A DNA stretch of 64,000 nucleotides from Deinococcales bacterium (GCA_043778225.1 JAYWGM010000080.1:1-64000); one strand, 5' to 3'. Positions 2,749-31,670 are shown, numbered from the stretch's first letter. Numbers and translations are program-made. The notes: generated from the sequence alone by a model not told the origin.

Positions 2749-3153
2749 TCAAATAGACTCGAGTTCAGAATTTTCAACTGTCAATGTACTCGCGGCGAGA
2801 TTACCTTCTAAATTGTGTATTCGCCGCAATTGCTTTTCTTGGCGTTCTGCTTTCTCTTGCATATAGTTTTCCCATGCGGCATTTTTTACTGCAATAAGGG
2901 TTAGACCCTCGAGGTTTAGAATACTGCGTTTACTGTCGCCGTGCATCCGAATCGCAAAGCCTTGTTCGTTGTTGGTGCGGTGTACCAGTATGCACCTACC
3001 ATTCTTGCCTTTTTCAATCACTTTCTCCCAAAGTAAATCGCGTACCAAGGCACTGACTGTTCCCACAAATACGCCCGTGGCAACCTCAAGCATCCAGCGT
3101 GTCAGTTCGCCGCGTAGTCCAACTGGTACTTTCTCGAGGATGATCGTGGTCAT
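2749..3153 (-). CDS. cas2: Type I-E Cas2 with ~40-aa C-terminal extension
   Basis: MTTIILEKVPVGLRGELTRWMLEVATGVFVG...NEQGF matches I-E Cas2; follows cas1. Confidence 0.95.
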   Translation of the reverse strand: MTTIILEKVPVGLRGELTRWMLEVATGVFVGTVSALVRDLLWEKVIEKGKNGRCILVHRTNNEQGFAIRMHGDSKRSILNLEGLTLIAVKNAAWENYMQEKAERQEKQLRRIHNLEGNLAASTLTVENSELESI

Positions 3154-4097
3154 TCTGGGGTCTCCTCGAGTTGGGAGTGGTTAATACCGCCTTCAACTTC
3201 ACCGTTGACATCCCAGATTGCGCCTGGTTTAGCCGAGTCGTTTTCAAATTCATCGGTCTCGAGACCATCGAATAAGCTGTGCAAGTCTTTGACTACCCGC
3301 TCGAGGAGTTTGCCAGTGCGGATGGTTTCGCGCAGGGCGTTGCGGGTTCGGGTTTCGACTTTCTGAGTATCTTCGGCGACCACGGCAAAGGCTGTGGGTA
3401 TCAGCATTTCGGCTTTGTACAAGTCGGCTACATCGTAGACAAAACTCAGTTGCTTGCCTGTATGAATAAATCCTAGGGCGGTACTGTACCCACTCGAGAC
3501 AATCGCGGCATGGCAGACTCCGTACAGGCTGGCACTGCCAGAGGATAAGGCTCGGTTGATCGGGTCTGAATCTGCCCAGTTGCCCCTATTGTAATTTCTG
3601 CCTTTCCATTCGATACCGTGTTCTAAACTGGCTTTGGCATAACTTTCTCGAACCCGTACCCCTTCGTGTCCGCGTAATTGCTCGAGCGTAATGTCAGTCG
3701 GGAGTTTTTCGGTAAAGCGCATTCGGTACATTCTTTTAACGACTTCCAAGTGGGTGGTGTCGTTCGCCCAGAGCCGAGCTTGTTTTAGGAGGTTGCGACT
3801 CGAGCGGGTCTCGCCTGTACCACTGGCATAAAAACGTTGGTGTTCCTCGCCGACCCAGTGAATACTGCAACCATTGCTGGCTAGGGCTTTAACGGCGGCA
3901 TGGGTGATACTCGTTCCGGGTCCGAGCATCAGCACACCAAGACTGGCGGCTGGAACACTGGTAAAACCATCTTCGTTTAGGACAGCAATGCTGTGTTGGT
4001 CTTGTTCAATTTTGGAATACTCGAGGTAAAGGTAAGACAAACCATCACGGAATTTTGGGAGTTCAGCGTAATTGATGCTACTTTTTACAGGTGGCAT
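3150..4097 (-). CDS. cas1: Type I-E Cas1
   Basis: LMLGPGTSITHAA, LRGHEGVRVR, LGFIHTGKQLSFVYDVADLYK motifs; start placed at ATG 4097 after GAAAGGAG. Confidence 0.97.
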   Translation of the reverse strand: MPPVKSSINYAELPKFRDGLSYLYLEYSKIEQDQHSIAVLNEDGFTSVPAASLGVLMLGPGTSITHAAVKALASNGCSIHWVGEEHQRFYASGTGETRSSRNLLKQARLWANDTTHLEVVKRMYRMRFTEKLPTDITLEQLRGHEGVRVRESYAKASLEHGIEWKGRNYNRGNWADSDPINRALSSGSASLYGVCHAAIVSSGYSTALGFIHTGKQLSFVYDVADLYKAEMLIPTAFAVVAEDTQKVETRTRNALRETIRTGKLLERVVKDLHSLFDGLETDEFENDSAKPGAIWDVNGEVEGGINHSQLEETPE

Positions 4098-4124
4098 GAT
4101 TTCTCCTTTCTCGAGCAATGAAAA

Positions 4125-4165: not shown

Positions 4166-4732
4166 TTAACCGATGCTGAGAAGTCCTAGCCCAAGGGCTT
4201 TGCTATGCCCAATTCCTTTTTGCAAGGTGGTTTGGAACAGCTCAAGGTTGGTAATTTTTAGGTGTCCATCGAATTCGGCAACGGCTAAGGTGATGGGGTC
4301 GGAATTGGAATCTTTACGAACCTTCCAGCAATCGGAATGAGAAACCATTGCTCCTAGAAGCCCAAAGCCCCCGCAAAGGGCTTGGCGCTCGAGCCACGGC
4401 ATCTGAGTCTCGAGGGTGTACAGACCCCTGCGTTTGCCTGCTTGGGTGATGGTGGGATTGGTTCGCAGGCGAAAGCGGTAAGTGCGTTCGGTGGAAAGGG
4501 TGAATTCTAGGGGTTTAGATTCAGATGGACGCAACAAGTAATTTGGCTCGAGTTGACCCCAATCAGGGCGGGACTGGGTTTGAACCAGCAAAATCGTATC
4601 CTCGAGTCGCCACAAGTAATTCTTTTCAGGCTCGAGAATTCGGGATAAGGTTTGGTGCATTTTATACGGATTAGCAGCATCGGCTCGAGCCAAGCGCGAA
4701 CGGGGATTTAGGGTCAGGCGCGAGAAGTACAT
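4166..4732 (-). CDS. cas6e: Cas6e (Cse3) crRNA endoribonuclease
   Basis: MYFSRLTLNP, YKMHQTL, FRLRTNPT, C-terminal GIGHSKALGLGLL G-loop. Confidence 0.95.
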   Translation of the reverse strand: MYFSRLTLNPRSRLARADAANPYKMHQTLSRILEPEKNYLWRLEDTILLVQTQSRPDWGQLEPNYLLRPSESKPLEFTLSTERTYRFRLRTNPTITQAGKRRGLYTLETQMPWLERQALCGGFGLLGAMVSHSDCWKVRKDSNSDPITLAVAEFDGHLKITNLELFQTTLQKGIGHSKALGLGLLSIG

Positions 4733-5355
4733 TAAGCACCTCCTATTTGCACATAACGAGCAGCGTATTTTCGTTCGGCAAAACTCGAGATTGGTTGGTC
4801 ATAGCGTAAACTACCCGTTGCAACGGTTGACTCGAGAATAACACGTGTACCAATGGGTTCATCCGATTCGATCTTTGAGATGTTGGTTGGGTATTTAAGG
4901 GCTTCTTCGAGTGATTCTGGACGCAAACCATCAGGCAACCAAATCGGTAGGCTTGGCACAAAGGCTTTACGCCCAAGTGACAATGAAAAAACAGGATTTT
5001 GTAACGCAGTCTGAGCTTGCTCGAGTAAAGCTTGGTTTGTACCTTCGACTCCGACCAGAAAAGCCGCTTCTGCTAGGTAATGCCGCCATGTTTGCACCGT
5101 GCTTTTTTTGGCACCCATCTGAGCAGTTTGATAATCTGTAAAACGCCGACCAGATTTATCCACACGCACACCCATTCGTAAAGCCGCCAGTTCGAGGGTA
5201 CGAAGGCTATCTTCTCGAGGGATACCCAGTGCAGCACAGAGCAAACCAACCACACCACTTTTACTGGGTTCATTATCGGTATCGCGGTCATCGAATTGAC
5301 TGCGTGTTCCCCAGCTTTGCATTGGGGCTACAAAACGCATTAAAAGCGTAGGCAT
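4732..5355 (-). CDS. cas5: Cas5e
   Basis: MPTLLMRFVAPMQSWG...PSKSGVVGLLCAALG, LGRKAFVPS; start reset to ATG 5355, just after the cas7 stop. Confidence 0.95.
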   Translation of the reverse strand: MPTLLMRFVAPMQSWGTRSQFDDRDTDNEPSKSGVVGLLCAALGIPREDSLRTLELAALRMGVRVDKSGRRFTDYQTAQMGAKKSTVQTWRHYLAEAAFLVGVEGTNQALLEQAQTALQNPVFSLSLGRKAFVPSLPIWLPDGLRPESLEEALKYPTNISKIESDEPIGTRVILESTVATGSLRYDQPISSFAERKYAARYVQIGGA

Positions 5356-5357
5356 GG

Positions 5358-6554
5358 TTACGCCCCAAGTTTCTGCATGGCGTTTTCGACAGCAGTACGA
5401 ATCAGGTTCTCGAGTGATACTATTTCTGTACCGATTTCGGCTTGGTAATCTGTTCCATTCCATTGAACCGTATCGCCGCCTTGGGCGTAAAACGATTCGA
5501 GTTTTTGCCATTGTCCAGCAAATTGTTTCAAGCTGGCTTGGGTCAAATTAAGGTTGGTTTTACTGACCTCATCAAAATGCGGTTTGGCAGGTAGTTCAAA
5601 CGCATTGGCAAGGTTGCGCGGACTGGCATTTCCTCGAGCCGTAAAGGCAATAAAACTTGGTGGATTATGAGCAGCAAAGGTATTTTGTTTACCTGATGGT
5701 GCAGACAGTACAGCCGCCATCAAAAACGCCTCGAGTCCTTTTTTGACCAGTTCGGTATCGTTCTGCAAATTCTTTTGTAACTGCTCTAAGTCAATCACCA
5801 AGTACCGATAGTAACAAGCGCTATTAAATTCGACTGTGCCTAACATTCCAGCCCCTGCGTCAGCTTCGTCATTCTGGTTTTTAAGGTCATCCACAGCCGT
5901 AAAGAAATCAAATTCTCGTTCGACTTTATTGGTACTGATTGCATGAGCCACTTGGCAAGCCGCGTCTTGATTTTTGTTGGGCATATCCGCCAGCATTCGC
6001 CCAAACAAGGCTACATCTACAGCATCACCACCGTCGCCTCTGGAGTGCATGGCTTTTGCAAGGGCTTTTTTAACTTCATCAGGCACGGCATCTTTAGCAG
6101 CCTTCTTGGCTTCTTTGGCTTTTTTACCATCGCCTGATTCCGCAACAATGTTTGACAAGGCATCCCAGTTTTCATGGATAATCTGAGCAATTTTATCTAA
6201 TTCACTTGCACCCAGAAAAATTAGGTACTGGGTTTTACCATCCTCGAGTTTTAAGCCTAAACCTTGAATACCAGCTTGAATGGCAGCTTCGGCGGCACTG
6301 GTATCGCGTCCCAAATTAGCTAGACGTGTTGTCACAGCTTCAACCAGTAATTGAGTACGTTCACCAAGGTGCTTAGGCTCGAGCAAATGGTGTTCGCGGA
6401 CGTGGGTTCGCATGGCGCGTTTTAGGCTTTGGCTGCTGATTCTGGCACGGCGATAGCCACCAAAAAAAGCATCTTTAGGGCTGCCTGTATCATCACGGTT
6501 TAGGTTGCTAGGGGCAAAGTTTTGCAGAATATGAAGCTCGAGTAATGCTTTCAT
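5358..6554 (-). CDS. cas7: Cas7e (Cse4)
   Basis: [51 protein letters not shown]. Confidence 0.97.
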
Positions 6555-6556
6555 GG

Positions 6557-7090
6557 TTAATTCTCCTTGGGTGTTGCTGGGGTTTGGGAGGTGTCAGTAG
6601 CTGTGTTGATATGGCGATAAAACGATTTTGCCCATTTACGCTGTGTGGTTTTACTTTCGGCATTCCAGTATTTCAAGTCCTTGAGAAGTTCTACCCAATC
6701 AATCAGCGCAGTGTCTTTTAAGAGTGCAATCATTTGGCGCAAACGGTACTGCACTTGGTCTATATCAGCATCGAGCAGAGCAATAAACCGATCTTCAATA
6801 CTTTTGGACTTTTGCCGAGCTACAAATAATTCAGCCACGCTTAAACCCAAGTTTCGAGGCTCGAGATACGGCACGGGCTTATCTGGATTTGGACGTTCAA
6901 CCAAGGCAAATAATCCTGCCACCAAATAATACATATCGCTTTCAAAACGGCTTGAGGTGTGCATTGCAAAATTCTCGACAATCCGAAAAGCTGGTGCATG
7001 CGTTCCAGCCTCAAATGCCAAACTGCGGCGTAATTCGGCTAATTCGGCACGCTCGAGTTTCCAAAGTCGGTCTATTAGGGCTTGGCTCAT
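6557..7090 (-). CDS. cse2: Cas11e (Cse2/CasB)
   Basis: Small helical protein ([31 protein letters not shown]) located between cas8e and cas7. Confidence 0.9.
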
Positions 7091-8619
7091 GCTTTCTCCT
7101 TTTTCTTGGGTTCGTCCCCTCGGCGCAGCAACGCCTCGAGCATTCCCTTGGCACTTTCGGCGGCTCTGAGTGCCTTAGCTGTAAATCCTGCACTGATTTC
7201 GGCTTGCTTGAAAGCATCTTTAGCCATTTTCTCGGTGTTCAAAATCCAATCTTGCTCGAGTTGACCGCGCACCGCATCAAATTCGTCTGGATTAGCGGGT
7301 AGGCTTGCAAGAAAAACCGTAAAAGCCCGTTCTAAAGCCGTCCAATAGACAGCTTGATGCCCAAAGGTACTGGATAACTTACGGGTATCTTCGGGCAGTG
7401 GTTTACGCTCACCTGCTCCGATAATCTTCTCGGCAAGGGTTCGGGCAGCCGCTTCGAGATTACGCCCAATACGTTCAGTAATTTGGAGGATTCGTTCAAC
7501 AAAAGTTCGGATTTCATGGTCAGACAAAACCAATTCAGGCAGCACAAACGCCTCGGCTCGAGTCATTAGAACCTTGGCTTTATCATTGGCTTGGGCAAAA
7601 ACATAAACCCTAAGTTGACCTCGTTGCCCTAGTAACCTAAGAATTTCTCGGGCATTCTCGAGGGTTGCGATGGTGCTTGCGCCATCTGGTTTAGGCACAA
7701 GTGCATGAAAATCTCGCCATAAACCCTTACCTTGAAATAATCCTAATTTCCGAGGCTCACCTTTGGCATTTAGGTACGATGCCGCCATTGGTTCTTTAGT
7801 ACCATCACCGTCCAAACCAACACCCGCCGCGAACGCCATAAACCGTACAGCACCATCATCTTGTTCTAAGCGAATGGCTCGAGGCATCCAAGTGTAACGG
7901 TCTGTAATCCCGCGCATGGCGGCTTTGAAACCACCTTCGAGTTGCTTAAAGCGTACAGGGTCACGTTCCCAAATTGGTGAATCGATTTTTCGATCCATGG
8001 CTGGATAGATCACTAAATTTAGGGTTAGCGTCTCGAGTAAATTCTGACCTGCTGCCATGACCAAAGCAGTATTAGCACTTGGCGCAGAACCCATGGCAGT
8101 AACACCCAAACGTTTAACCAATCCACCAAGTGCAAACCCTTGATGCTCAAGCAAATGCAGCACCGCTTCGGCAGGAGTAATACCATCGGTAGCATTGGGG
8201 ACATTTTCACGAAGGCGTTCATTGAACAAAAATGTTGTATTACCACTGCCACGTTCGGTGGACAGTTTTGACCAGTGGTCGGTTAAACCCTCGAGTGGTA
8301 AGTCTGGCACTTGCATAAATGGTGTAGTCCCAAATAAATCAAAACGGTCATGCCATCTATCCAAGTACGCCCGAATTTTAGGTGCTGGAAACCCATCTAA
8401 AAACCATTGTGCTGCATCTTCTGGTCGGTCAGGACCTTCCAAAGCACGGTGCAAAACCGCCAGTAAAAATCGGTAAACAGCAACTGAAACAAGTGGATTT
8501 GAATGCTCAAGACGCTCAAATTGCTTTGCCTCGAGCAATGCTGTTTCGAGTGAAACCAGTTGTACTGTGTGACCAGTACGAACAGGAATCCAAGGCTCTG
8601 TACAAAGATTAAAACTCAA
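7087..8619 (-). CDS. cse1: Cas8e (Cse1/CasA)
   Basis: FNLCTEPWIPV, RFDLFGTTPFMQ, NLLETLTLNL motifs; AGGAGG RBS. Confidence 0.93.
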   Translation of the reverse strand: MSFNLCTEPWIPVRTGHTVQLVSLETALLEAKQFERLEHSNPLVSVAVYRFLLAVLHRALEGPDRPEDAAQWFLDGFPAPKIRAYLDRWHDRFDLFGTTPFMQVPDLPLEGLTDHWSKLSTERGSGNTTFLFNERLRENVPNATDGITPAEAVLHLLEHQGFALGGLVKRLGVTAMGSAPSANTALVMAAGQNLLETLTLNLVIYPAMDRKIDSPIWERDPVRFKQLEGGFKAAMRGITDRYTWMPRAIRLEQDDGAVRFMAFAAGVGLDGDGTKEPMAASYLNAKGEPRKLGLFQGKGLWRDFHALVPKPDGASTIATLENAREILRLLGQRGQLRVYVFAQANDKAKVLMTRAEAFVLPELVLSDHEIRTFVERILQITERIGRNLEAAARTLAEKIIGAGERKPLPEDTRKLSSTFGHQAVYWTALERAFTVFLASLPANPDEFDAVRGQLEQDWILNTEKMAKDAFKQAEISAGFTAKALRAAESAKGMLEALLRRGDEPKKKEKA

Positions 8620-8658: not shown

Positions 8659-11352
8659 TTATTTCTCATAGACCACCCCTTCTTCTGAATCCAAGCGAAC
8701 CAGTGTTTTTCCAAATTGGGCAATTCCACCCTCGAGAATCAATGGCATCATGCCTTGCAAAAGTGGTGTTTCCTGCCATGGCAAAGATTTGAAATGCTGT
8801 TTCACGTGCTGCTCTATGCCGTAAACAATTGCTTTGCGCCCTAAGCGCACACTCTGGGCATAAATTTCTTTGGCTGCCTCTAAATCCAATCTGGCTTTGT
8901 CCGAAACTGGTTTTGTTGCATTAGAATCAAGATAAAACGCACCGGCTATCTTAAAAATGGGGACTACCGTAATGCTTTCTTCGCCTTTGCGAGTGCTGAC
9001 TCGTTTTGTTCCAGCCATGACTTCATCTTCGGTACTCGAGCGAAAACCTCGGGTTGGGTCTTCCCAAGATGTATCTTGGGGATTACCAATCACAGCTTGG
9101 GTGGCATCTATGACATTGCGATCTTCCTCGCCTAGCAATAATAAATGGGCTTTCTCGAGGATTTGTTTTAAGTTTTCGTTTAGTTCGCCAAGTGGTGTGT
9201 CGCCGTACACCAGTTGCACCAACGTATCAATGTCATCTGGAAACTCGAGTTGCTGCGTACCCGCTAGGGCTTGCCATGTTCTTAGTAAAATGTATTTAGC
9301 ATAAACAAATTGCCAATGGTTCGTCTCGAGGTCTGGTTGTATTGTGGCATCGGTTAAACCAGCAATAAATAAGACTGGTTCAGTGTGAATTCCTCGGTTG
9401 CCATCATTCACCGAATGCCGATGCAACCGCCCTGCGCGTTGTAACAATAAATCTATTGGAGCTAAGTCTGAAATCATCAGGTCAAAGTCCAAATCAAGGC
9501 TTTGTTCAACCACTTGGGTGGCAATAAGAATGGCTTTTACTGGTCGGTTTGGATTGGCTTTTGAACCTTTTTTACTAAATGCTTCTAAACAAGCCTGTTC
9601 GCGTTTTTGGCGTTCTGCCACAGGAAACCGTGCATGGAAAAGTAAGACAGGAGTTCCAAACTCGTTGTCTTTAAGCAGTCTATACAGTCTTTGAGCGCGG
9701 TCTACTGTGTTGGAAATAAATACAGCACACCCTTGAACTTTGGTCAACTCGAGTAGTGTATCTGCCAGCACTTCGTCTTCTTGATTTAGAGGTTTGATAA
9801 ATACGGTTTTATGACCACTGGCAGGAACATGAACACAAGTGGTTTTTTTGCTCGAGACTTTTGTAATACGCGGGTACGGTTTTGAGTCATGGTTTTCTGA
9901 ACCAAATGCCTCGAGCAGCGCTATCCGTTTCTTTGCGGGTAAAGTCGCGCTCATCACAATAACGCTTGAACCCAAGGCAAAAAGCCATTGCACCAACGTT
10001 TCAATCAGTGAACCTGTGTATGTGTCGTAAGCATGAACTTCGTCGAGAACAACGACACGGTTGCCCAATCCCCAAAGTCTGACAAATTGGTGCTTAACAT
10101 TCAGTACACCCAAGAGCGCTTGGTCTACTGTGCCAACCCCGTACTCGGATAATAATGCACGTTTACGATGTGAAAAATAAGCTCGAGCCACCACAAGTTC
10201 TTCGGGTTTATCGGCAATGTCCTTGATGACAATATCTTGGTATTCTGCTTTTAATAACGTTGCACCATGCAGCAACTGCAAATCCAAGCGTGAGGCTCGA
10301 GCTTCGCCAAATTGCTTTAAGAAGTCTTGGGTACGGTTAAACATCGCGTTTCCTGTGGCTTGGGTTGGCAACGCCACATACATTCCACGATGTCCATTCA
10401 GACGTTGTAATTCGAGGTGCGCGTACAAGGCAAGCTCGGTTTTCCCTTCGCCCATTGGTGCTTCGACAATCAACAGCGTGGGTGAAGTTACACCTTTAAG
10501 TAAATCAACTATGGCTATCTGTAGCGCTCGAGGATAGAACACAGCCTCTGGTTCAACCAAATAAGAAAAGGTTTTTTCAAGAGATTGTTTTTTGTCAATG
10601 AGCGGTTCTCGAGCCGACCAACCTACTTTATCCAAAGCAATTCGAGCGCGTTTTTTAGCCAGTAAAAAATAAGTTTCCACGGCTTCAAATTGGGCAAACG
10701 GTAGGCTTGAACCTATCCAATCGGCAAAACTGGTCAGTCCCGCAAGGCGCTGGAATGCTCCTGCTGTTAGAAAATCTGAGTTAGGGGTACTTTGTATATT
10801 GAGTGCTTCCAGTACCGCTTCAAATAATTCTGTTCTCACATTTGCCCATTGAACACCGCCATTTTCGGCTCGAGTATCCGCTTTACCCAATAAACCTGCT
10901 TCAACTCGCCAACCGTGATGAGCGCCAACCGCATCCGCCGCTAGTCGGGCTGCGCGTAAAGACCAACCTCGAGTTGGCAACAATCGACATAATTCCAGTT
11001 GCGACACTGCACTGTGCGGAACGTCATCTGGGGGTTTGGTTTGATTGTTATTCCAAGGTAGGTATTCTTTAACTCTTTCGCGCCCACCCTCCCATTTTTG
11101 TTGAAAAGCAGGACTGGCTTTACCAAGGTCATGTAAACCAACCAAAGCACAAACCCAAGGCTTGGTTTGGTCTAGCTCGAGACCAAAATCTATTGCAAAT
11201 AACTGAATTGTGCTAACTGGTTCACGCTCGAGAATCTCCCATGCACAAGCTGCTACATCGAGTAAATGAGCAATTACCGAATGCCCATCAGGAGGGTCAG
11301 TCTCAAGTTTAGGGCTTTTCGCCCAGAGTGCTTTGGCTGCTTCGGATAACAT
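8659..11352 (-). CDS. cas3: Cas3 HD nuclease-helicase
   Basis: LWAKS, HLLDV, LHDLGKAS, ADWIGS; APMGEGKTE, DEVHAYD, ATQVVEQSLDLDFD, QRAGRLHRH. Confidence 0.98.
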   Translation of the reverse strand: MLSEAAKALWAKSPKLETDPPDGHSVIAHLLDVAACAWEILEREPVSTIQLFAIDFGLELDQTKPWVCALVGLHDLGKASPAFQQKWEGGRERVKEYLPWNNNQTKPPDDVPHSAVSQLELCRLLPTRGWSLRAARLAADAVGAHHGWRVEAGLLGKADTRAENGGVQWANVRTELFEAVLEALNIQSTPNSDFLTAGAFQRLAGLTSFADWIGSSLPFAQFEAVETYFLLAKKRARIALDKVGWSAREPLIDKKQSLEKTFSYLVEPEAVFYPRALQIAIVDLLKGVTSPTLLIVEAPMGEGKTELALYAHLELQRLNGHRGMYVALPTQATGNAMFNRTQDFLKQFGEARASRLDLQLLHGATLLKAEYQDIVIKDIADKPEELVVARAYFSHRKRALLSEYGVGTVDQALLGVLNVKHQFVRLWGLGNRVVVLDEVHAYDTYTGSLIETLVQWLFALGSSVIVMSATLPAKKRIALLEAFGSENHDSKPYPRITKVSSKKTTCVHVPASGHKTVFIKPLNQEDEVLADTLLELTKVQGCAVFISNTVDRAQRLYRLLKDNEFGTPVLLFHARFPVAERQKREQACLEAFSKKGSKANPNRPVKAILIATQVVEQSLDLDFDLMISDLAPIDLLLQRAGRLHRHSVNDGNRGIHTEPVLFIAGLTDATIQPDLETNHWQFVYAKYILLRTWQALAGTQQLEFPDDIDTLVQLVYGDTPLGELNENLKQILEKAHLLLLGEEDRNVIDATQAVIGNPQDTSWEDPTRGFRSSTEDEVMAGTKRVSTRKGEESITVVPIFKIAGAFYLDSNATKPVSDKARLDLEAAKEIYAQSVRLGRKAIVYGIEQHVKQHFKSLPWQETPLLQGMMPLILEGGIAQFGKTLVRLDSEEGVVYEK

Positions 11353-12344
11353 TATGCACCTCCAAATTTTTCAATCACATCTCGAGCTTCTTTTAACCAA
11401 AGCTCGCGCAGAAAAAGCGGCTCGAGAATTTCAACATTTGCACCCCAACCTCGAATAAATGGCATCAGTTCTACAGGTATACCCGCGTTATTCACCCCTG
11501 TTTGAATGGTCATAATCAGGTTGTTATCATCATCACTTTCTAGCCTTAACACACCCGGTAAGCGCCGATGCTCGAGCCAGCGCCGTACACTGGCGTTGAA
11601 TTTAAGCCTGACAATAATTGGTTTGCGGTCTCCGATTACACCCCAAGCATTTGAAAGGTAGGCTTGTGGGTCAAAATCCTCGGGGATGCTGTACTGCTCG
11701 TTTAGTGGTGTAACCCCTTGCATCAAAGACAGTAAATAGGTGCGGACTTCATAGGGCGGGTGATTGGTTCTGCGTCCGATGACATAAATCTCGAAGTTGC
11801 TTCTGGAAATTTCGACCAGATAAATCTCGAGATTATTGCGCCGGTCTTTTTGACTGGTACTGCTCAAAGCAAGGTATTCAAAAGTGATGGCTCGGCGTTG
11901 TGTCCAGCAGTTAGCAATCTTCTCGAATTGCGAGAATTTCTCGTCTGTGCCTTGGTTATTGGGTAAGGATAATTGGGCTATTTTTTGTAATTCAATGGGC
12001 ATCTGCGGGGTAATTTTCTCGAGTGCATTGCGGTAACTTTGCGGTGGGTTGCTGGTGTGATGAAAAAGTAAACGCAAGGCAATATGAGTGACCAGCGCTT
12101 CATCAGCTTTTAGTTGCGGCAGGGCTTCTCGAGTTAAGGTGTAGGTTTGAGGGCGTTTGTTATCGGCTTCAATATCGTTTCCCTGAGCGCGTAAATCTTC
12201 AAAATCACGCAGGATGGCTCGATGACTGGCTTTGTCATGCACAATTTTGAGCCGTTGGCAGATTTCTTCAATGCTGCGTGATTTGGTACGCAGCATTTCA
12301 AGCACTTCCTGAACGCGCAGCGTCTTTTTTCGGGTTACTTTCAT
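11352..12344 (-). CDS. HTH-WYL-WCX transcriptional regulator translationally coupled to cas3
   Basis: N-terminal HTH (RAILRDFEDL), WYL-like core, FDPQAYLSNAWGV, GWGANVEILEP; start at ATG 12344 after GGAG; stop overlaps the cas3 ATG. Confidence 0.9.
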   Translation of the reverse strand: MKVTRKKTLRVQEVLEMLRTKSRSIEEICQRLKIVHDKASHRAILRDFEDLRAQGNDIEADNKRPQTYTLTREALPQLKADEALVTHIALRLLFHHTSNPPQSYRNALEKITPQMPIELQKIAQLSLPNNQGTDEKFSQFEKIANCWTQRRAITFEYLALSSTSQKDRRNNLEIYLVEISRSNFEIYVIGRRTNHPPYEVRTYLLSLMQGVTPLNEQYSIPEDFDPQAYLSNAWGVIGDRKPIIVRLKFNASVRRWLEHRRLPGVLRLESDDDNNLIMTIQTGVNNAGIPVELMPFIRGWGANVEILEPLFLRELWLKEARDVIEKFGGA

Positions 12345-12453
12345 GGGTTTCTCCAAATGGTTCATTGACACGACAATACTCGAGACCCGTCGCCTGATGG
12401 TCGCATCTAATGATAATTTAAGTTTACACACTGATAATCTGAGTGTACTTAAC

Positions 12454-14112
12454 TCAATTCAAGTCGCGTGGTTGATGCTCAAAAGACCGTATTCGCTCGA
12501 GTACCCATTCTTCATTTACACCTGTCATAAACACCGAAACGCTTTCGCCATTGTCTCTTGCTTGTCGCACATCGTACTGCCAAGTGCTGTTTAGGTCGAG
12601 GCTGTAGACCCCACCTTGTTGTTGAATACTCTCTTGCCAACCTAGTGCTTCTCGCAAAGACACCACCGCTTTTGAAATCAGTTTTTGTTTAGCTCGAGCC
12701 TCGGTCTTGGTGGTATTTGGGTAGAAATCAAGCAGCAATTGACGGGCGCTGCGTGACCCTTGATGCTCAAGCAGTAAGACCAATAATTGGGCAGCACGAT
12801 TGGTTGGATTGAGGCTGAGGCGACGCTGATTGATACTGATTTGCAATGTTCCTCTGGCTTTTACTTGGATTTGGAAACGTGAATTGGTTTGGATTAGTGT
12901 TGGTAAGGTGATGTTCATACTGACCAAGAGGGCTTGAAGTTTTGGGAAGGCTATCAGTTCATCGCGTCCCCAGAGGCTATGCCAACGTACTTTTTTAGCG
13001 TACTCGAGCGCGAGGTTCGGATTTTGATGTCGGCGGGCTATTTCGGCATAAATAATCTGACGGCGTTCTTCATCCTCACCACCGCCTTGCCATTGCTCGA
13101 GGGCGTGTTGGGCAGTTTCTACATTTCCATTGGCAAGCCGTGCTGCCGCTAAGTCTGGGTAAATCGTTAAGGGATGGTGGTGTTTCTTTTGGATGGCTAA
13201 GGCTTTTTGTAAGTAAGGCAGGGCTTGGCTAGGATTACCTTGTAAGCGCAGGGTATGACCGATGCCACGCTGGGCTTGGATTTCATCAAATGGTTCTTTG
13301 GCTAGTTTTAAGGCTTTTTTATAAGCAAAAATAGCTCGTTGGTATTCACCTGCGGCTCGCCACGATAAACCAAAACCACGCCATGCTTGTGATAAAAACA
13401 TTTTGGCATCTGGATGTAAGGCTCGTTTTAGGAGTTGGGCATAGTACGTTTCAGCTTCCTCGAGTTTAAGTTCTCTGACACAGGATAAACCTAGGTTAGC
13501 CATGATTTTAGCTTCATAAAAAGCATCGGTTGTAAAAAATGATTTGGCTATTGCCCAGTGTTCTCGAGCCATTGCCCCTTGAAGTTCTAATTCAAGCGCT
13601 CTTCCCCATTCAAAATGCACCAAACCAGTCTGTCGCCCAGTGGTGTGCTTGGCTGCCCGTTCAAAAGCCTGTTGCCAGTTAGGTAAACCAAGTTCATAAC
13701 TGGCTTCGGCAAGCACCCGATGTGCCAAGTCGTGACGGAAATCTGTTTCTAAAGCAGCTTGGGCTTGCTCGAGTGCCGCGATGGGCTTTGAGCAGCGCAA
13801 CAAGGCAAGGGCATGAAGGGCTAAGGCTTGTGGTGGGGTTGGTATTATGGTCTCGAGGACACCCAAGGCTTTTTCAAAAGCTCGAGCGCAAAGCAGTAAC
13901 TCTGCGAAAACCAATTGATTTTGCTGGGTGCGGGGCAGATGGTTTTCTATCGGCTCGAGAATTCGCACAAAATCCTGATGTTGTTGAAGATTACGGGCTA
14001 AACGCAGTACAGAAGGCAATGATTGTGCCAAGGCAAACCAGTTTTTTGTCTGAATCAATTTTTTGCATTGACTAAAATACTCATTCCATTGAAGACTGGT
14101 ACTGATTCGCAT
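12454..14112 (-). CDS. TPR-repeat protein with C-terminal winged-helix-like (SARP/AfsR-type) domain
   Basis: Multiple TPR helices (AIFAYKKALKLA, ALPYLQKALAI), then IQVKARGTLQISINQ..AAQLLVLLL..VSLREALG; leaderless TACACT upstream. Confidence 0.75.
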   Translation of the reverse strand: MRISTSLQWNEYFSQCKKLIQTKNWFALAQSLPSVLRLARNLQQHQDFVRILEPIENHLPRTQQNQLVFAELLLCARAFEKALGVLETIIPTPPQALALHALALLRCSKPIAALEQAQAALETDFRHDLAHRVLAEASYELGLPNWQQAFERAAKHTTGRQTGLVHFEWGRALELELQGAMAREHWAIAKSFFTTDAFYEAKIMANLGLSCVRELKLEEAETYYAQLLKRALHPDAKMFLSQAWRGFGLSWRAAGEYQRAIFAYKKALKLAKEPFDEIQAQRGIGHTLRLQGNPSQALPYLQKALAIQKKHHHPLTIYPDLAAARLANGNVETAQHALEQWQGGGEDEERRQIIYAEIARRHQNPNLALEYAKKVRWHSLWGRDELIAFPKLQALLVSMNITLPTLIQTNSRFQIQVKARGTLQISINQRRLSLNPTNRAAQLLVLLLEHQGSRSARQLLLDFYPNTTKTEARAKQKLISKAVVSLREALGWQESIQQQGGVYSLDLNSTWQYDVRQARDNGESVSVFMTGVNEEWVLERIRSFEHQPRDLN

Positions 14113-14121
14113 GATTGGTAG

Positions 14122-14153
14122 TGTAGCGCCAAAAGTAAGCTCTTGGCGCTACA
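14122..14153 (-). terminator. Hairpin after the peptide gene, overlapping the -10 box of the TPR gene
   Basis: TGTAGCGCCAA-N10-TTGGCGCTACA perfect 11-bp stem. Confidence 0.65.
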
Positions 14154-14161
14154 GTGTGGCA

Positions 14162-14296
14162 TTAACCGCCAGAGCCACCACCAGGGTCATCCCCAGCCAT
14201 CAACACAGGGGTAGGGTTGGAGATGACTGTATTTGGAACTGCCACCACCGCTAAGAGGAACACCGCGACCAGAACTTGAACGACACGCTTGAACAT
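14162..14296 (-). CDS. 44-aa putative secreted peptide precursor MFKRVVQVLVAVFLLAVVAVPNTVISNPTPVLMAGDDPGGGSGG
   Basis: Below the ORF-track cutoff; translated by hand. AAAGGAG RBS, basic N-terminus plus hydrophobic core, downstream hairpin. Confidence 0.75.
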   Translation of the reverse strand: MFKRVVQVLVAVFLLAVVAVPNTVISNPTPVLMAGDDPGGGSGG

Positions 14297-14450
14297 AAAA
14301 ACTCCTTTCGAGTGGCTGTAAAACCGCTCGAAGGTGAGTTTCGTTGGCTAGTGCGTCAAATCGTGACGTGGTAAAAATACCCCTTGGGATACTGGTCGTA
14401 TCTGGGGCATTGAATTAACAACATCATTTGGTTAGCTTGGATTCAAGCCT

Positions 14451-14675
14451 TTATTTCTTGACTTCTTCAAAGACTGGTACATCGCCTAGCAATGGCTCGA
14501 GTCCAGCGTATCGGCGTTGCCAATGCTCGAGTCGGGCGTGTTCGGATTGGCTGGGCATAACCGCAAGATTATCGGGGCTGTTATCGGTCTTATCCCCATT
14601 TTTGTGATGCACCACTTCTCGAGGCTCGAGGTCACGCCCCGTTCTGGTTGCAATACTTTTGGCTCGAGCAAAGTG
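14451..14675 (-). pseudogene. HNH endonuclease fragment (HNH_3-like) without its own ATG
   Basis: Hand translation ...GRDLEPREVVHHKNGDKTDNSPDNLAVMPSQSEHARLEH...KK*; in frame directly after the cupin TAG. Confidence 0.75.
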
Positions 14676-29732: not shown

Positions 29733-31670
29733 GTGATTTACGAACCCAATCCGATCCTCGAGTGCTACCTCAGTGACCAATTTGACCTTGGCATCGAGAC
29801 TTTTGATTTGCTCGAGACCGCAACACCGCTCGACTTACTTTGGGTTGGGCAGTGCCATTTTGGGCTTGACCACCATGTCGAAGCCCTCCATTATTTTTAT
29901 CAAGCCAGCGCTCGAGGATATGTCGAGGGAACAATTTTTGCCTCAACTGTTTTGCGCTTTATTGGCAGCCACCAATTAGCCAATCAACTGCTGGCACAGG
30001 TCATGCACAAAGACCTTTCGGTATTTGGTCAGGCGGCTTGGTACAGAGAAAATGGTCTGCAATTGGTCGCAATGCGCCATTTTGCCTTGGCAATTCCAGA
30101 ACTTGAACAGGCTTGGCGAATTGCCAGTGCCGACCCCATAGGGCAGCGTTTACTGGCTCGCTATTCGCAAAGTCTGGCTTTAGCACTGCTCGAGATTGGA
30201 CGCGACCAAAACGCCTTGAAATACCTCAACTTGGCAATTAATCCAAAAAAACCGAATCCCGATTTACTTGTACTACGAAGTTCTGCTCTTGCTTACAGTG
30301 GTGAATTTACCAAAGCCAAAGCAGACCTCGAGCAATTTCGTCAACTGGTTTCAGGTTCTCAGTCCACTTGGACTCATTTGGTTCATGGTTTTATCGCACG
30401 CTGTCAAGGTTTAATCGAACAAGCTACAACCATCTACCTTGAAACCGCCTCGAGTGCCAAAACCCTAGGCGAATGGGAAACCGAATTCTATGCCGAGGTC
30501 GCCTTGTGTGCCTTACTCACCGAACAAGGCAGTTACCACGTTGCCCAAGCACACCTGTCCAGAGCGCATGGGGTTATTCCTTTGCCGCGTGAAGATTTTG
30601 CGGTTCACGAAGCCATGATTGCCATGCGTCATGCTGCCCTACAAACATCCCAAGGCAATAAAGAGGCAATCAACACGCTCCAGCACGTCGCCCTCATCCT
30701 TGGACAGCGAAAACTCGAGCGCGAACTTGGCATTGCCGAACTGCACTTGTCCGAAGCCTATTTTTATAACAACCAGCAACAAGCAGGATTATCAGCTTTG
30801 GCTCGAGCCATTCATTTGCGTCATGCGGTTGGCAGCCAAGCCTATTTTGCCCTTGAATTACGCGCCTTGCCTCATGTTTTCCAGACCGTTTGCGGCTTGA
30901 GAATTCGAGGCACAGATGTTTTCTACCAAGATTGGCAAACCCTAGAACGCCAAAGCCCACACGAAGTACAACTGACGACCCTAGGAGATTATTCGATTCG
31001 GCTCAATGGACAAGTCGTTAAACTTGATTCTGGCACAGCCAAAGCAGTCGAATTTCTGGCGTACTTACTCGAGGCTGGCGAATCGCGTTTAGACCAGATG
31101 ATTAGCGAAATTTTTGATTCTGGCTCGCACAGCACCGCCCGTAATCGTATTCATAAGTTACGTGAATCAATCGCTCGGCAAATACCCGGCTTAATTGTTC
31201 CGCATAACAAAGAACGCAATACCTATCACCTCGAGCCAGTCGGTGTGCGTTTGCGCTGGGATGTGCGCGAACTCCGCAAAGCCCTCGAACAGGGTGGTGT
31301 GACTGGAATGCAGCGCGTACTTTCGATGTACACAGGAGCATTCTTACCGCGCAGCGAAACCCAATGGGCAGAACAGACGCGCTTTGAACTTGAATTGAGC
31401 ATTACCGAAGTTGGTCTTGAAACCCTCAACGAACTCTTTAAGCTCGAGCGCTTTGATGAGTGCTTACGATTAGCCGAACGACTGGCACAGATTGCCAACA
31501 TGAGTCTTGGAATTCAACTGCTGCTCTTAAAAGCCACGATTCGGGTACACGGGGCAATTGCGGCTCGAGAACGACTCTTAAAAATAGACCCCATCATCCA
31601 AAACGATTTGCGAACCCTTCCAGAATTGCAATTTGAATTTCGCAACGCAGAGCGCGAATTTTTGAATTAA
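29733..31670 (+). CDS. TPR + winged-helix + BTAD transcriptional regulator
   Basis: N-terminal TPR helices; VQLTTLGDYSIRLNG, KAVEFLAYLL, WDVRELR, YTGAFLPRSETQWAEQTR. Confidence 0.8.
   Translation: MIYEPNPILECYLSDQFDLGIETFDLLETATPLDLLWVGQCHFGLDHHVEALHYFYQASARGYVEGTIFASTVLRFIGSHQLANQLLAQVMHKDLSVFGQAAWYRENGLQLVAMRHFALAIPELEQAWRIASADPIGQRLLARYSQSLALALLEIGRDQNALKYLNLAINPKKPNPDLLVLRSSALAYSGEFTKAKADLEQFRQLVSGSQSTWTHLVHGFIARCQGLIEQATTIYLETASSAKTLGEWETEFYAEVALCALLTEQGSYHVAQAHLSRAHGVIPLPREDFAVHEAMIAMRHAALQTSQGNKEAINTLQHVALILGQRKLERELGIAELHLSEAYFYNNQQQAGLSALARAIHLRHAVGSQAYFALELRALPHVFQTVCGLRIRGTDVFYQDWQTLERQSPHEVQLTTLGDYSIRLNGQVVKLDSGTAKAVEFLAYLLEAGESRLDQMISEIFDSGSHSTARNRIHKLRESIARQIPGLIVPHNKERNTYHLEPVGVRLRWDVRELRKALEQGGVTGMQRVLSMYTGAFLPRSETQWAEQTRFELELSITEVGLETLNELFKLERFDECLRLAERLAQIANMSLGIQLLLLKATIRVHGAIAARERLLKIDPIIQNDLRTLPELQFEFRNAEREFLN

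Follow-up and report, generated by a model that had tools for sequence, protein, structure and literature searches.

The head of a type I-E cas operon in a Deinococcales bacterium carries a small gene paired with the gene of a transcriptional regulator, and this pairing recurs at many loci of the Deinococcota. It was studied in a stretch of 64,000 nucleotides (nt) (GCA_043778225.1 JAYWGM010000080.1:1-64000), which we refer to at its full length as the window. On the minus strand of the window, a micro open reading frame (micro-ORF; 14162..14296) of 44 amino acids (aa) is followed by a hairpin, a gene encoding a 552-aa protein with tetratricopeptide repeats and a winged helix-turn-helix domain (TPR-wHTH; 12454..14112), a gene encoding a WYL-type regulator, a complete type I-E cas operon and a CRISPR array. 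This gene order had been claimed in an original prediction made from the sequence, and every element of it was confirmed in place. The prediction went on to interpret the first two genes as a peptide-receptor module resembling the RRNPP systems of Bacillota.

Our analyses show that the micro-ORF is a real gene under purifying selection, and that the synteny of the peptide, TPR, WYL and cas genes is conserved across families and across the CRISPR-Cas subtypes I-E and I-C. We consider the chances about evenly balanced that the two genes form a peptide-gated regulator pair, RRNPP-like but non-homologous, that controls CRISPR-Cas expression.

The micro-ORF and its product

The ATG of the micro-ORF is preceded, at a distance of 5 nt, by the Shine-Dalgarno (SD) sequence AGGAG (14302-14306). 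Its product consists of a basic n-region, a hydrophobic h-region and a tail of about 25 aa that is acidic and Gly-rich at its end. The micro-ORF was compared with its counterparts in four relatives, in which the TPR protein shares 65-74% identity with that of the window. The proportion of synonymous differences (pS) was 0.61-0.66 and that of nonsynonymous differences (pN) 0.12-0.17, giving pN/pS ratios of 0.19-0.27. Synonymous sites are near saturation while pN is low, which demonstrates that the micro-ORF is coding and under purifying selection.

Loci were gathered from metagenome-assembled genome records, metagenome contigs and species genomes, resulting in a set of 65 in which near-duplicates were kept. 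The original prediction had regarded homologous regulators lacking an adjacent micro-ORF as evidence against itself. Instead, when co-oriented ORFs of 25-130 aa ending no more than 350 nt upstream of the TPR start were considered, 61 of the 65 loci were found to carry a signal-peptide-like ORF with a conserved tail. These ORFs encode 53 distinct peptides from Deinococcus, Allomeiothermus and uncultured Deinococcales, and all 61 combine a hydrophobic stretch with a tail that ends in Gly or Cys. The four loci without a hit are L004, which has no upstream DNA, and L044, L059 and L070, which are discussed below. Stricter criteria, demanding a tail that ends in G, has at least two G in its last five residues and contains an acidic residue in the last 16, still yielded an ORF at the target position in 56 of the 65 loci. 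Elsewhere, just nine such ORFs were present in 438,955 bp, counting both strands, so that about 0.004 are expected per target window.

An alignment of 13 peptides revealed conservation of M1, a single Leu of the helix, one Pro and, within the tail, the D and G positions. The tail consensus reads approximately hydrophobic-A-G-D-D-P-K-x-G-x-G-G and runs up to the stop codon; the version of the window has a G for the K. Database searches identified 14 predicted homologues, of which the eight that are named are all called "hypothetical protein". No Pfam domain was detected in these 14 proteins, and the micro-ORF itself had no Pfam or NCBIfam match. In a search of the ESM Atlas with the micro-ORF, the best three of 30 matches were unnamed clusters scoring <0.9.

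The 53 distinct peptides were also scored for the n-h-c organization of signal peptides, using crude rules of our own making. The n-region carries a net positive charge in 52 of them, the net charge on the C-terminal side of the hydrophobic core is zero or negative in 45, and at least one site obeying the (-3,-1) rule follows soon after the core in all 53, several having classical AxA sites. By the positive-inside rule, the N-terminus of such a peptide stays in and the tail goes out. Cleavage at these sites would leave a mature peptide of about 18-30 residues. In genomes that contain two cas-linked cassettes the tails differ, as expected for orthogonal signals.

Four other identities of the product were considered and rejected. 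The idea of a Pup- or ubiquitin-like modifier with a C-terminal GG was tempting, since PafBC are WYL proteins. It is ruled out by the N-terminal signal-type helix and by the lack of a body the size of a beta-grasp fold; in addition, we know of no Pup system in Deinococcota. A double-glycine leader does not fit, because the GG is at the extreme C-terminus and not ahead of a core peptide. Neither does a lipoprotein, as the peptide of the window has no lipobox Cys after the h-region, nor a precursor of a bacteriocin or of a ribosomally synthesized and post-translationally modified peptide, as no modification, immunity or transport genes are nearby.

The TPR-wHTH regulator and its genetic context

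The 552-aa regulator matches ten TPR-type Pfam families at E <=0.01. A model generated with AlphaFold2 (AF2) from 17 family members (mean pLDDT 89.8) consists of helical repeats from residue 1 to about 400, followed by a mixed alpha/beta domain, in which a winged helix (residues ~410-520) and two helices together span residues ~410-545. A Foldseek search with the whole model returned generic TPR superhelices only, and the C-terminal domain was therefore modelled alone (pLDDT 86.3). Its best Foldseek match was the SARP DNA-binding region of AfsR (8hvr_I; E 3.8e-5, TMq 0.67), the next ones being EmbR and the effector domains of OmpR/PhoB. When a profile of this domain was searched against PDB sequences, only the winged helix of EmbR was found (E 0.018). 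The C-terminal domain of the TPR protein is thus a SARP/OmpR-type winged helix. Pfam, AF2 and Foldseek all bear out the domain order of the original prediction, in which the TPR domain comes first and the DNA-binding domain last. The neighbours of the protein in the ESM Atlas are BTAD/TPR regulators, and the BTAD family itself (PF03704) gave no match in it at E <=0.01. Because the TPR sensor comes first, the winged helix last, and there is no BTAD Pfam match, the protein can be described as a "reverse SARP".

A WYL-type homologue is encoded downstream of the TPR gene in 59 of the 65 loci. Of the six exceptions, L001, L005 and L015 end no more than 269 nt from the TPR gene, and L051, L052 and L064 have at least 1.5 kb without a WYL gene. 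Cas genes are present in 27 of the 31 loci that have at least 3 kb of downstream flank (25 detected by tblastn, and L056 and L065 by Pfam); in the other four of these 31, L064, L067, L070 and L071, they were not found. The window has a type I-E system, and its closest relatives, L002 and L003, have type I-C systems (Cas3, Cas5d, Csd1, Cas7, Cas4). A quick maximum-likelihood tree of 62 TPR proteins contains ten type I-E and 24 type I-C rows, which are interspersed; the other 28 rows could not be typed, having insufficient flank. In this tree the window belongs to a five-row clade with 100% support that includes the type I-C loci L002 and L003. As the cassette occurs with either I-E or I-C cas genes, it is portable between subtypes, and the cas association claimed for a single type I-E operon holds across both.

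The WYL-type regulator of the window is encoded by a 359-aa ORF (11352..12431, minus strand) and is probably of the HTH-WYL-WCX type. The WCX family (PF25583) matches it at 32.0 bits (cut-off 23.9), and HTH_11 scores 23.3 bits, which is under the cut-off of 25. The WYL family (PF13280) gave no match in this protein at E <=0.01 and is detected in the homologues of L010 and L019 (24.7 and 23.5 bits; cut-off 21.8); the orthologue of D. proteolyticus has the RefSeq name "WYL domain-containing protein". The stop codon of the WYL gene overlaps the ATG of cas3 (TAATG), implying translational coupling of the two genes. In Thermaceae-type loci, a WYL-WCX module forms the N-terminal part of a type I-C Cas3 fusion protein of 1087-1089 aa. 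Pfam identifies these fusions in L010 (9561-12830) and L016 (1924-5187), and in L007 (2145-5411) the evidence is an ORF of the same size only. The annotated Cas3 of A. silvanus has 1084 aa, i.e. a fusion-like size. In the Thermaceae-type loci the cassette is flanked by a CRISPR array (29 and 18 repeats) on one side and by cas3 on the other.

Members of the cassette family are present in 116 of the 364 Deinococcota genomes searched, which is about a third. Sorted by family, and excluding genome G000, they occur in 17/18 genomes of f1, 64/125 of f2 and 34/68 of f4, and in 0/23 of f3, 0/128 of f5 and 0/1 of f6. Among the named carriers are eight Deinococcus plasmids, Allomeiothermus silvanus, and three Thermus plasmids whose matches are partial and span 47% of the query; all named records with the cassette belong to Deinococcota. 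For D. proteolyticus MRP, the RefSeq gene order is a 48-aa hypothetical protein, "tetratricopeptide TPR_2", "WYL domain-containing protein", cas3 and casA. In A. silvanus DSM 9946, the TPR gene is preceded by a 57-aa ORF bearing the tail motif, which is not in the (incomplete) gene table. Viral contigs gave 62 pattern matches, none of which was confirmed as a relative.

The genome of the window contains two further TPR-wHTH paralogues, near which no cas or WYL genes were found. Each has a co-oriented small ORF upstream, which encodes a helix and a tail with Cys at the Gly positions. In the paralogue clade these Cys are paired (CxxC or CxxxC), which fits an oxidising, extracytoplasmic destination. 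A search with one of the paralogues showed that 17 of 121 genomes of the order carry its clade; within the family of the window the figure is 13 of 18. Among the loci from this search, nine have Cys-tailed ORFs and L080 has none; L085 and L096 have no upstream DNA, and L088, L097 and L098 have Gly-type tails and no WYL match within 1.5 kb. At L082, two Cys-tailed small ORFs (901-1170 and 1248-1385) lie in tandem upstream of a single paralogous TPR gene, which recalls the tandemly duplicated pro-peptides that occur in some RRNPP systems. An M29 aminopeptidase encoded directly after one Cys-tail paralogue in the genome of the window (L025 6986-8086, minus strand) was considered as a processing enzyme and rejected, being present at none of the 15 other loci.

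Proposed functions of the pair

We propose that the micro-ORF would encode a Sec-type pre-peptide, from which export and cleavage by signal peptidase would release a peptide of about 18-30 aa with the conserved acidic-Lys-Gly tail. This peptide, or a shorter C-terminal fragment of it, would be taken back into the cytoplasm, where the TPR superhelix of the TPR-wHTH protein would bind it. The SARP-type winged helix would then alter transcription from the promoter of the WYL-cas3-Cascade genes, and probably also act on the promoter of the peptide gene itself. The WYL regulator, coupled to cas3 here and fused to it in Thermaceae, could add a second, ligand-dependent input. Expression of the cas genes would in this way be set by the accumulation of the peptide, and hence by cell density, confinement or the state of the envelope. 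What we infer here are the export of the peptide, its cleavage and re-import, its binding to the TPR protein, the DNA targets, and whether regulation is positive or negative. The genome encodes 14 OppA-type binding proteins, which is permissive only for peptide import. Co-folding of the full TPR protein with the 44-aa peptide, run without controls, gave a score of 0.02 in both runs and weighs neither way on binding.

A broader proposal, which we put forward tentatively and hold to be less probable than the one above, is that Deinococcota possess an independent family of peptide-pheromone systems, combining TPR and SARP-type winged helix regulators with Sec-exported peptides that have D-D-P-K/Gly- or Cys-rich tails. 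One mobile branch of this family would switch type I-E and I-C CRISPR immunity, and the paralogues with other tails would be orthogonal channels for other operons.

The RRNPP systems (Rap/Phr, NprR/NprX, PlcR/PapR, PrgX, AimR/AimP, Rgg/SHP) likewise combine a TPR-superhelix receptor with an adjacent gene for a small pro-peptide that has a signal peptide and a conserved C-terminal part. RRNPP systems rely on the general secretion and uptake machinery, as the cassette would. A fold search with the whole model, independent of Foldseek, ranked RapI first (Z 22.7, rmsd 5.2, 317 residues) and also retrieved the phi105 Rap with its peptide (Z 21.5), NprR-NprX (20.8), RapH (19.4), AimR (18.7) and PlcR-PapR (14.3). 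Unrelated TPR superhelices tie with RapI in this search (LGN, Z 22.4; OGT, 22.3; BBS4, 22.2). The analogy of the original prediction is thus retained in part: the superhelix does resemble those of Rap, NprR and AimR, but unrelated ones match equally well, and the resemblance to RRNPP receptors is real but not specific. RRNPP receptors differ in having an N-terminal Xre-type HTH or a Rap-type N-terminal effector domain, and not a C-terminal SARP/OmpR winged helix. They belong to Bacillota and their phages and plasmids, whereas the present proteins belong to Deinococcota and show no detectable sequence homology to them; no RRNPP-specific Pfam family or HTH_3-like match was found in the TPR protein at E <=0.01. 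Also unlike RRNPP systems, the tail is conserved between genera, and the cassette and a WYL regulator are encoded in cis to cas operons. The cassette falls outside the RRNPP group on account of its DNA-binding domain, its lack of detectable sequence homology and its host range.

Several observations weigh against the proposal that the peptide is a pheromone-like signal controlling cas genes. By sequence, none of the 46 PDB profile matches of the TPR protein is an RRNPP protein. Next, the tail core G-D-D-x-K-x-G-x-G-G is shared between genera whose TPR proteins are only ~30% identical. Divergence is usually far greater among RRNPP pheromones, and the tail could perhaps be under a constraint that does not come from a private receptor. 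Genes for an exporter, a protease or an importer are not conserved next to the cassette. The envelope of Deinococcota is complex and includes an outer membrane, which makes free diffusion of a peptide between cells less obvious. In addition, L059 has the TPR, WYL and cas genes without any micro-ORF. At L044 the micro-ORF is frame-broken (~1225-1470), with its tail and hydrophobic part in different frames, and at L070 an IS630-like transposase frame takes its place (upstream of ~1023). Both of these loci retain the TPR and WYL genes and represent natural losses of the micro-ORF.

Finally, the pair occurs without WYL or cas genes in L051, L052 and L064, and in all 15 loci of the paralogue search that have a TPR match and are not from G000. 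The pairing at cas operons that had been predicted is confirmed, but it is not specific to CRISPR. Because the pair is found without these genes, we regard it as a general signalling cassette recruited to cas operons rather than a CRISPR-specific invention. The core unit is the peptide plus the TPR-wHTH protein; the cas/WYL setting is the commonest and not the sole one, and the pair is older than its link to cas.

Some of these observations would suit a different function, in which the TPR protein monitors secretion or the state of the envelope by binding pre-peptide that has stayed in the cytoplasm, or the tail of this precursor. Phage infection or membrane damage would slow Sec export or collapse the proton-motive force, the precursor would accumulate and engage the TPR-wHTH regulator, and the latter would switch on the cas genes, with no re-import being required. 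The conserved pairing and the signal-peptide build fit this scheme equally well, it does not call for the importer or exporter that is absent from the cassette, and a tail conserved across genera is easier to reconcile with a housekeeping type of recognition than with a private pheromone. Clamping of C-terminal tails is common among TPR domains, and PEX5 is among the weak profile matches of the TPR protein. We nevertheless consider this scheme rather unlikely: the paired Cys in the tails of the paralogue clade suggest a function after export, in an oxidising compartment, the differing tails in two-cassette genomes suggest signal specificity, and we know of no precedent for such a secretion monitor.

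It is less likely still that the small protein is the output of the system, i.e. a membrane-active, toxin-like, abortive-infection or bacteriocin-like effector under the control of the TPR-wHTH and WYL regulators. The product is small and contains a hydrophobic helix. Its gene invariably has the orientation of the regulator gene, and possesses its own ribosome-binding site, a stem in the 5' untranslated region (5'UTR) that could mask the SD sequence, and a terminator-like hairpin, as in tightly controlled small toxins. However, it is the soluble, acidic, Gly-rich tail that is conserved and not the helix, the charge distribution and the (-3,-1) sites fit a cleaved signal peptide, immunity, modification and transport genes are lacking nearby, and the 5'UTR stem may simply result from the abundance of CTCGAG (see below).

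Alternatively, the micro-ORF might be a cis-acting leader (upstream ORF) that acts through the hairpin as an attenuator, the peptide itself being functionless. The position of the hairpin directly between the stop codon of the ORF and the TPR start, and the short gap of about 50 nt in the window, are in line with this. But selection acts on the amino acids while synonymous change is nearly saturated, the tail and signal-peptide build are conserved where the DNA is unalignable, and a -10 box of its own seems to serve the TPR gene, which together make a leader highly improbable. That the micro-ORF is a chance ORF or annotation artefact, for which only its shortness and lack of a Pfam or NCBIfam match speak, is refuted by the pN/pS values, the database homologues and the 56 of 65 loci observed where ~0.004 are expected per locus, and we give it practically no weight.

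The preferred reading of a peptide-gated regulator also invites comparison with SARP proteins (AfsR, EmbR), whose winged helix provides the best structural and profile match and in which TPR-like helices accompany the DNA-binding domain as well. In SARPs, however, the DNA-binding domain is N-terminal and followed by the BTAD domain, whereas here the order is reversed, with the TPR domain first and only two helices after the winged helix. The present regulator also differs from AfsR and EmbR in having no NB-ARC ATPase, and in its pairing with a peptide gene and association with cas genes. SARPs bind direct repeats at their target promoters; two 17-nt repeats, the first of which is well conserved, precede the WYL gene here and could play a similar role (see below).

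To our knowledge, what is understood of how cells time the expression of CRISPR-Cas comes largely from a few model Proteobacteria and Firmicutes. Fusion of WYL to Cas3 is described for some type I systems by Makarova et al. (2014, PMC4012209), and the arrangement here, with an HTH-WYL-WCX-type protein directly before cas3 and fused to it in Thermaceae loci, resembles those systems. A term search of that paper found none of "TPR", "Deinococcus" and "Thermus", and the upstream peptide/TPR pair lies outside its description. Regulation of cas genes by population density is reported for the acyl-homoserine lactone (AHL) system of Serratia (Patterson et al. 2016, PMC5179492), for P. aeruginosa and for agr of S. 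aureus. The AHL and agr circuits are genome-wide and act in trans, whereas the present cassette is a dedicated peptide/receptor unit that resides inside the cas locus and moves between subtypes. In Myxococcus, the extracytoplasmic function (ECF) sigma factor DdvS and its transmembrane anti-sigma factor DdvA control a CBASS/CRISPR island (PMC11506125). They are likewise a locus-encoded, envelope-connected pair at the head of a defence island but are reported to be a sigma/anti-sigma pair, with neither a small peptide nor a TPR-wHTH protein.

The arrangement was not found described in our full-text literature searches; supplements and subscription journals lie outside their coverage, and it may be mentioned elsewhere. 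In the text of the RRNPP_Detector survey (PMC10075063), a term search found neither "Deinococ" nor "CRISPR", and in that of PMC10013973 none of "WYL", "Thermus" and "Deinococcus". In a term search, bioRxiv 10.1101/270033 was found to mention TPR only in STAND NTPases, and a term search of PMC12669027 did not find the arrangement.

A dedicated sensor cassette is part of the cas locus and has been exchanged between I-E and I-C systems, whereas known density control is global and acts in trans. If the peptide is a signal, this would be, to judge from the literature searched, the first peptide-signalling system described in Deinococcota. It would also have evolved convergently with RRNPP systems, and would offer type I CRISPR systems a compact natural switch that a peptide can induce. 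The proposal can be tested directly in two cultured, non-pathogenic carriers: D. proteolyticus MRP, which has a type I-E locus on plasmid pDEIPR03, and A. silvanus DSM 9946, which has a type I-C locus with a WYL-Cas3 fusion on plasmid pMESIL01.

Expression signals and other features of the window

Upstream of the micro-ORF, about 80 nt are nearly invariant between the window and the four relatives, and the DNA further upstream is unalignable. This conserved block, together with the SD sequence, makes 14297..14378 (minus strand) a presumed regulated promoter and 5'UTR. The 5'UTR (14294-14345, minus strand) can fold into a stem in which the SD sequence is paired (-19.7 kcal/mol, z -4.8). This SD-masking stem may exert translational control or may be a by-product of two neighbouring CTCGAG-like sites, and it is doubtful because such palindromes are hyper-abundant.

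The stem-loop between the micro-ORF stop and the TPR start (14122..14153, minus strand) has arms at 14122-14135 and 14140-14153 that are 93% complementary, and no U-tract. Its RNA fold has a predicted energy of -22.9 kcal/mol (z -5.9), which none of 200 shuffles equalled. Stem-loops of unrelated sequence are present at the equivalent place in other lineages: when the 73 nt after the micro-ORF stop were scanned against mononucleotide shuffles, z was <=-2 in 30 of 55 distinct loci. The structure is probably a terminator, an attenuator or a 3' stabiliser of the peptide transcript.

A -10-like sequence, TACACT (14120-14125), is located 7 nt ahead of the ATG of the TPR gene and is overlapped by the 3' arm of the hairpin. 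As the TPR gene has no SD sequence, its mRNA is probably leaderless; leaderless mRNAs are common in Deinococcota. The motif TANNNT was found 4-9 nt ahead of a candidate TPR start in 40 of 55 distinct loci, and identified by eye in the window and its close relatives. Because each locus offers several candidate starts, chance alone would by our own estimate produce it in about one third of the loci; the boxes are suggestive of leaderless TPR mRNAs. Together with the stem-loop after the micro-ORF, they speak for the peptide gene being expressed separately.

The TPR-WYL intergenic region (12345..12453, minus strand) is a candidate operator. It contains a promoter-like sequence, TTATCA-16-TATCAT (12437 to 12410), which is overlapped by two 17-nt direct repeats with a spacing of 21 nt (12411-12427 and 12432-12448). 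The region is partly conserved in three relatives, in which only the first repeat is well conserved. The true start of the WYL gene is probably the ATG at 12344, giving a protein of 330 aa, and the GGAGA SD sequence ahead of this start is conserved in relatives.

The cas operon, on the same strand, begins with cas3, whose HD nuclease and helicase were identified by their Pfam domains (8659..11352). It continues with cse1 (7087-8619), cse2 (6557-7090), cas7e (5358-6554), cas5e (4732-5511; start uncertain), cas6e (4166-4732), cas1e (3150-4118) and cas2e (2749-3153). The type I-E assignment is based on the NCBIfam I-E models of these last seven genes, all of which scored above cut-off, together with the Cas3 domains and the array. 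The CRISPR array (15..~2700) has 44 repeats with a spacing of 60-63 nt.

Two other ORFs of the window were noted. Just upstream of the cassette, a 54-aa ORF (14451-14615, minus strand) matches only the C-terminal half of the HNH_3 model and is probably the remnant of an HNH homing-type endonuclease. Within a 647-aa open frame, a 79-aa piece (30939-31175, plus strand) without a Pfam match weakly matches the winged helix in the TPR-wHTH profile (E 2.9e-5), and is possibly another SARP-like regulator.

Finally, CTCGAG is a HIP1-like hyper-abundant palindrome in the window, where 387 copies are present in 64 kb against 8.3 +/- 2.8 expected from dinucleotide shuffles, the next 6-mer palindrome having 41. 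Its density is about 5-7 per kb in the loci of the family of the window, 1.3-3.6 in Thermaceae loci and ~0 in Deinococcus loci. Ten of the copies in the window lie in the CRISPR array region, where they are in spacers.

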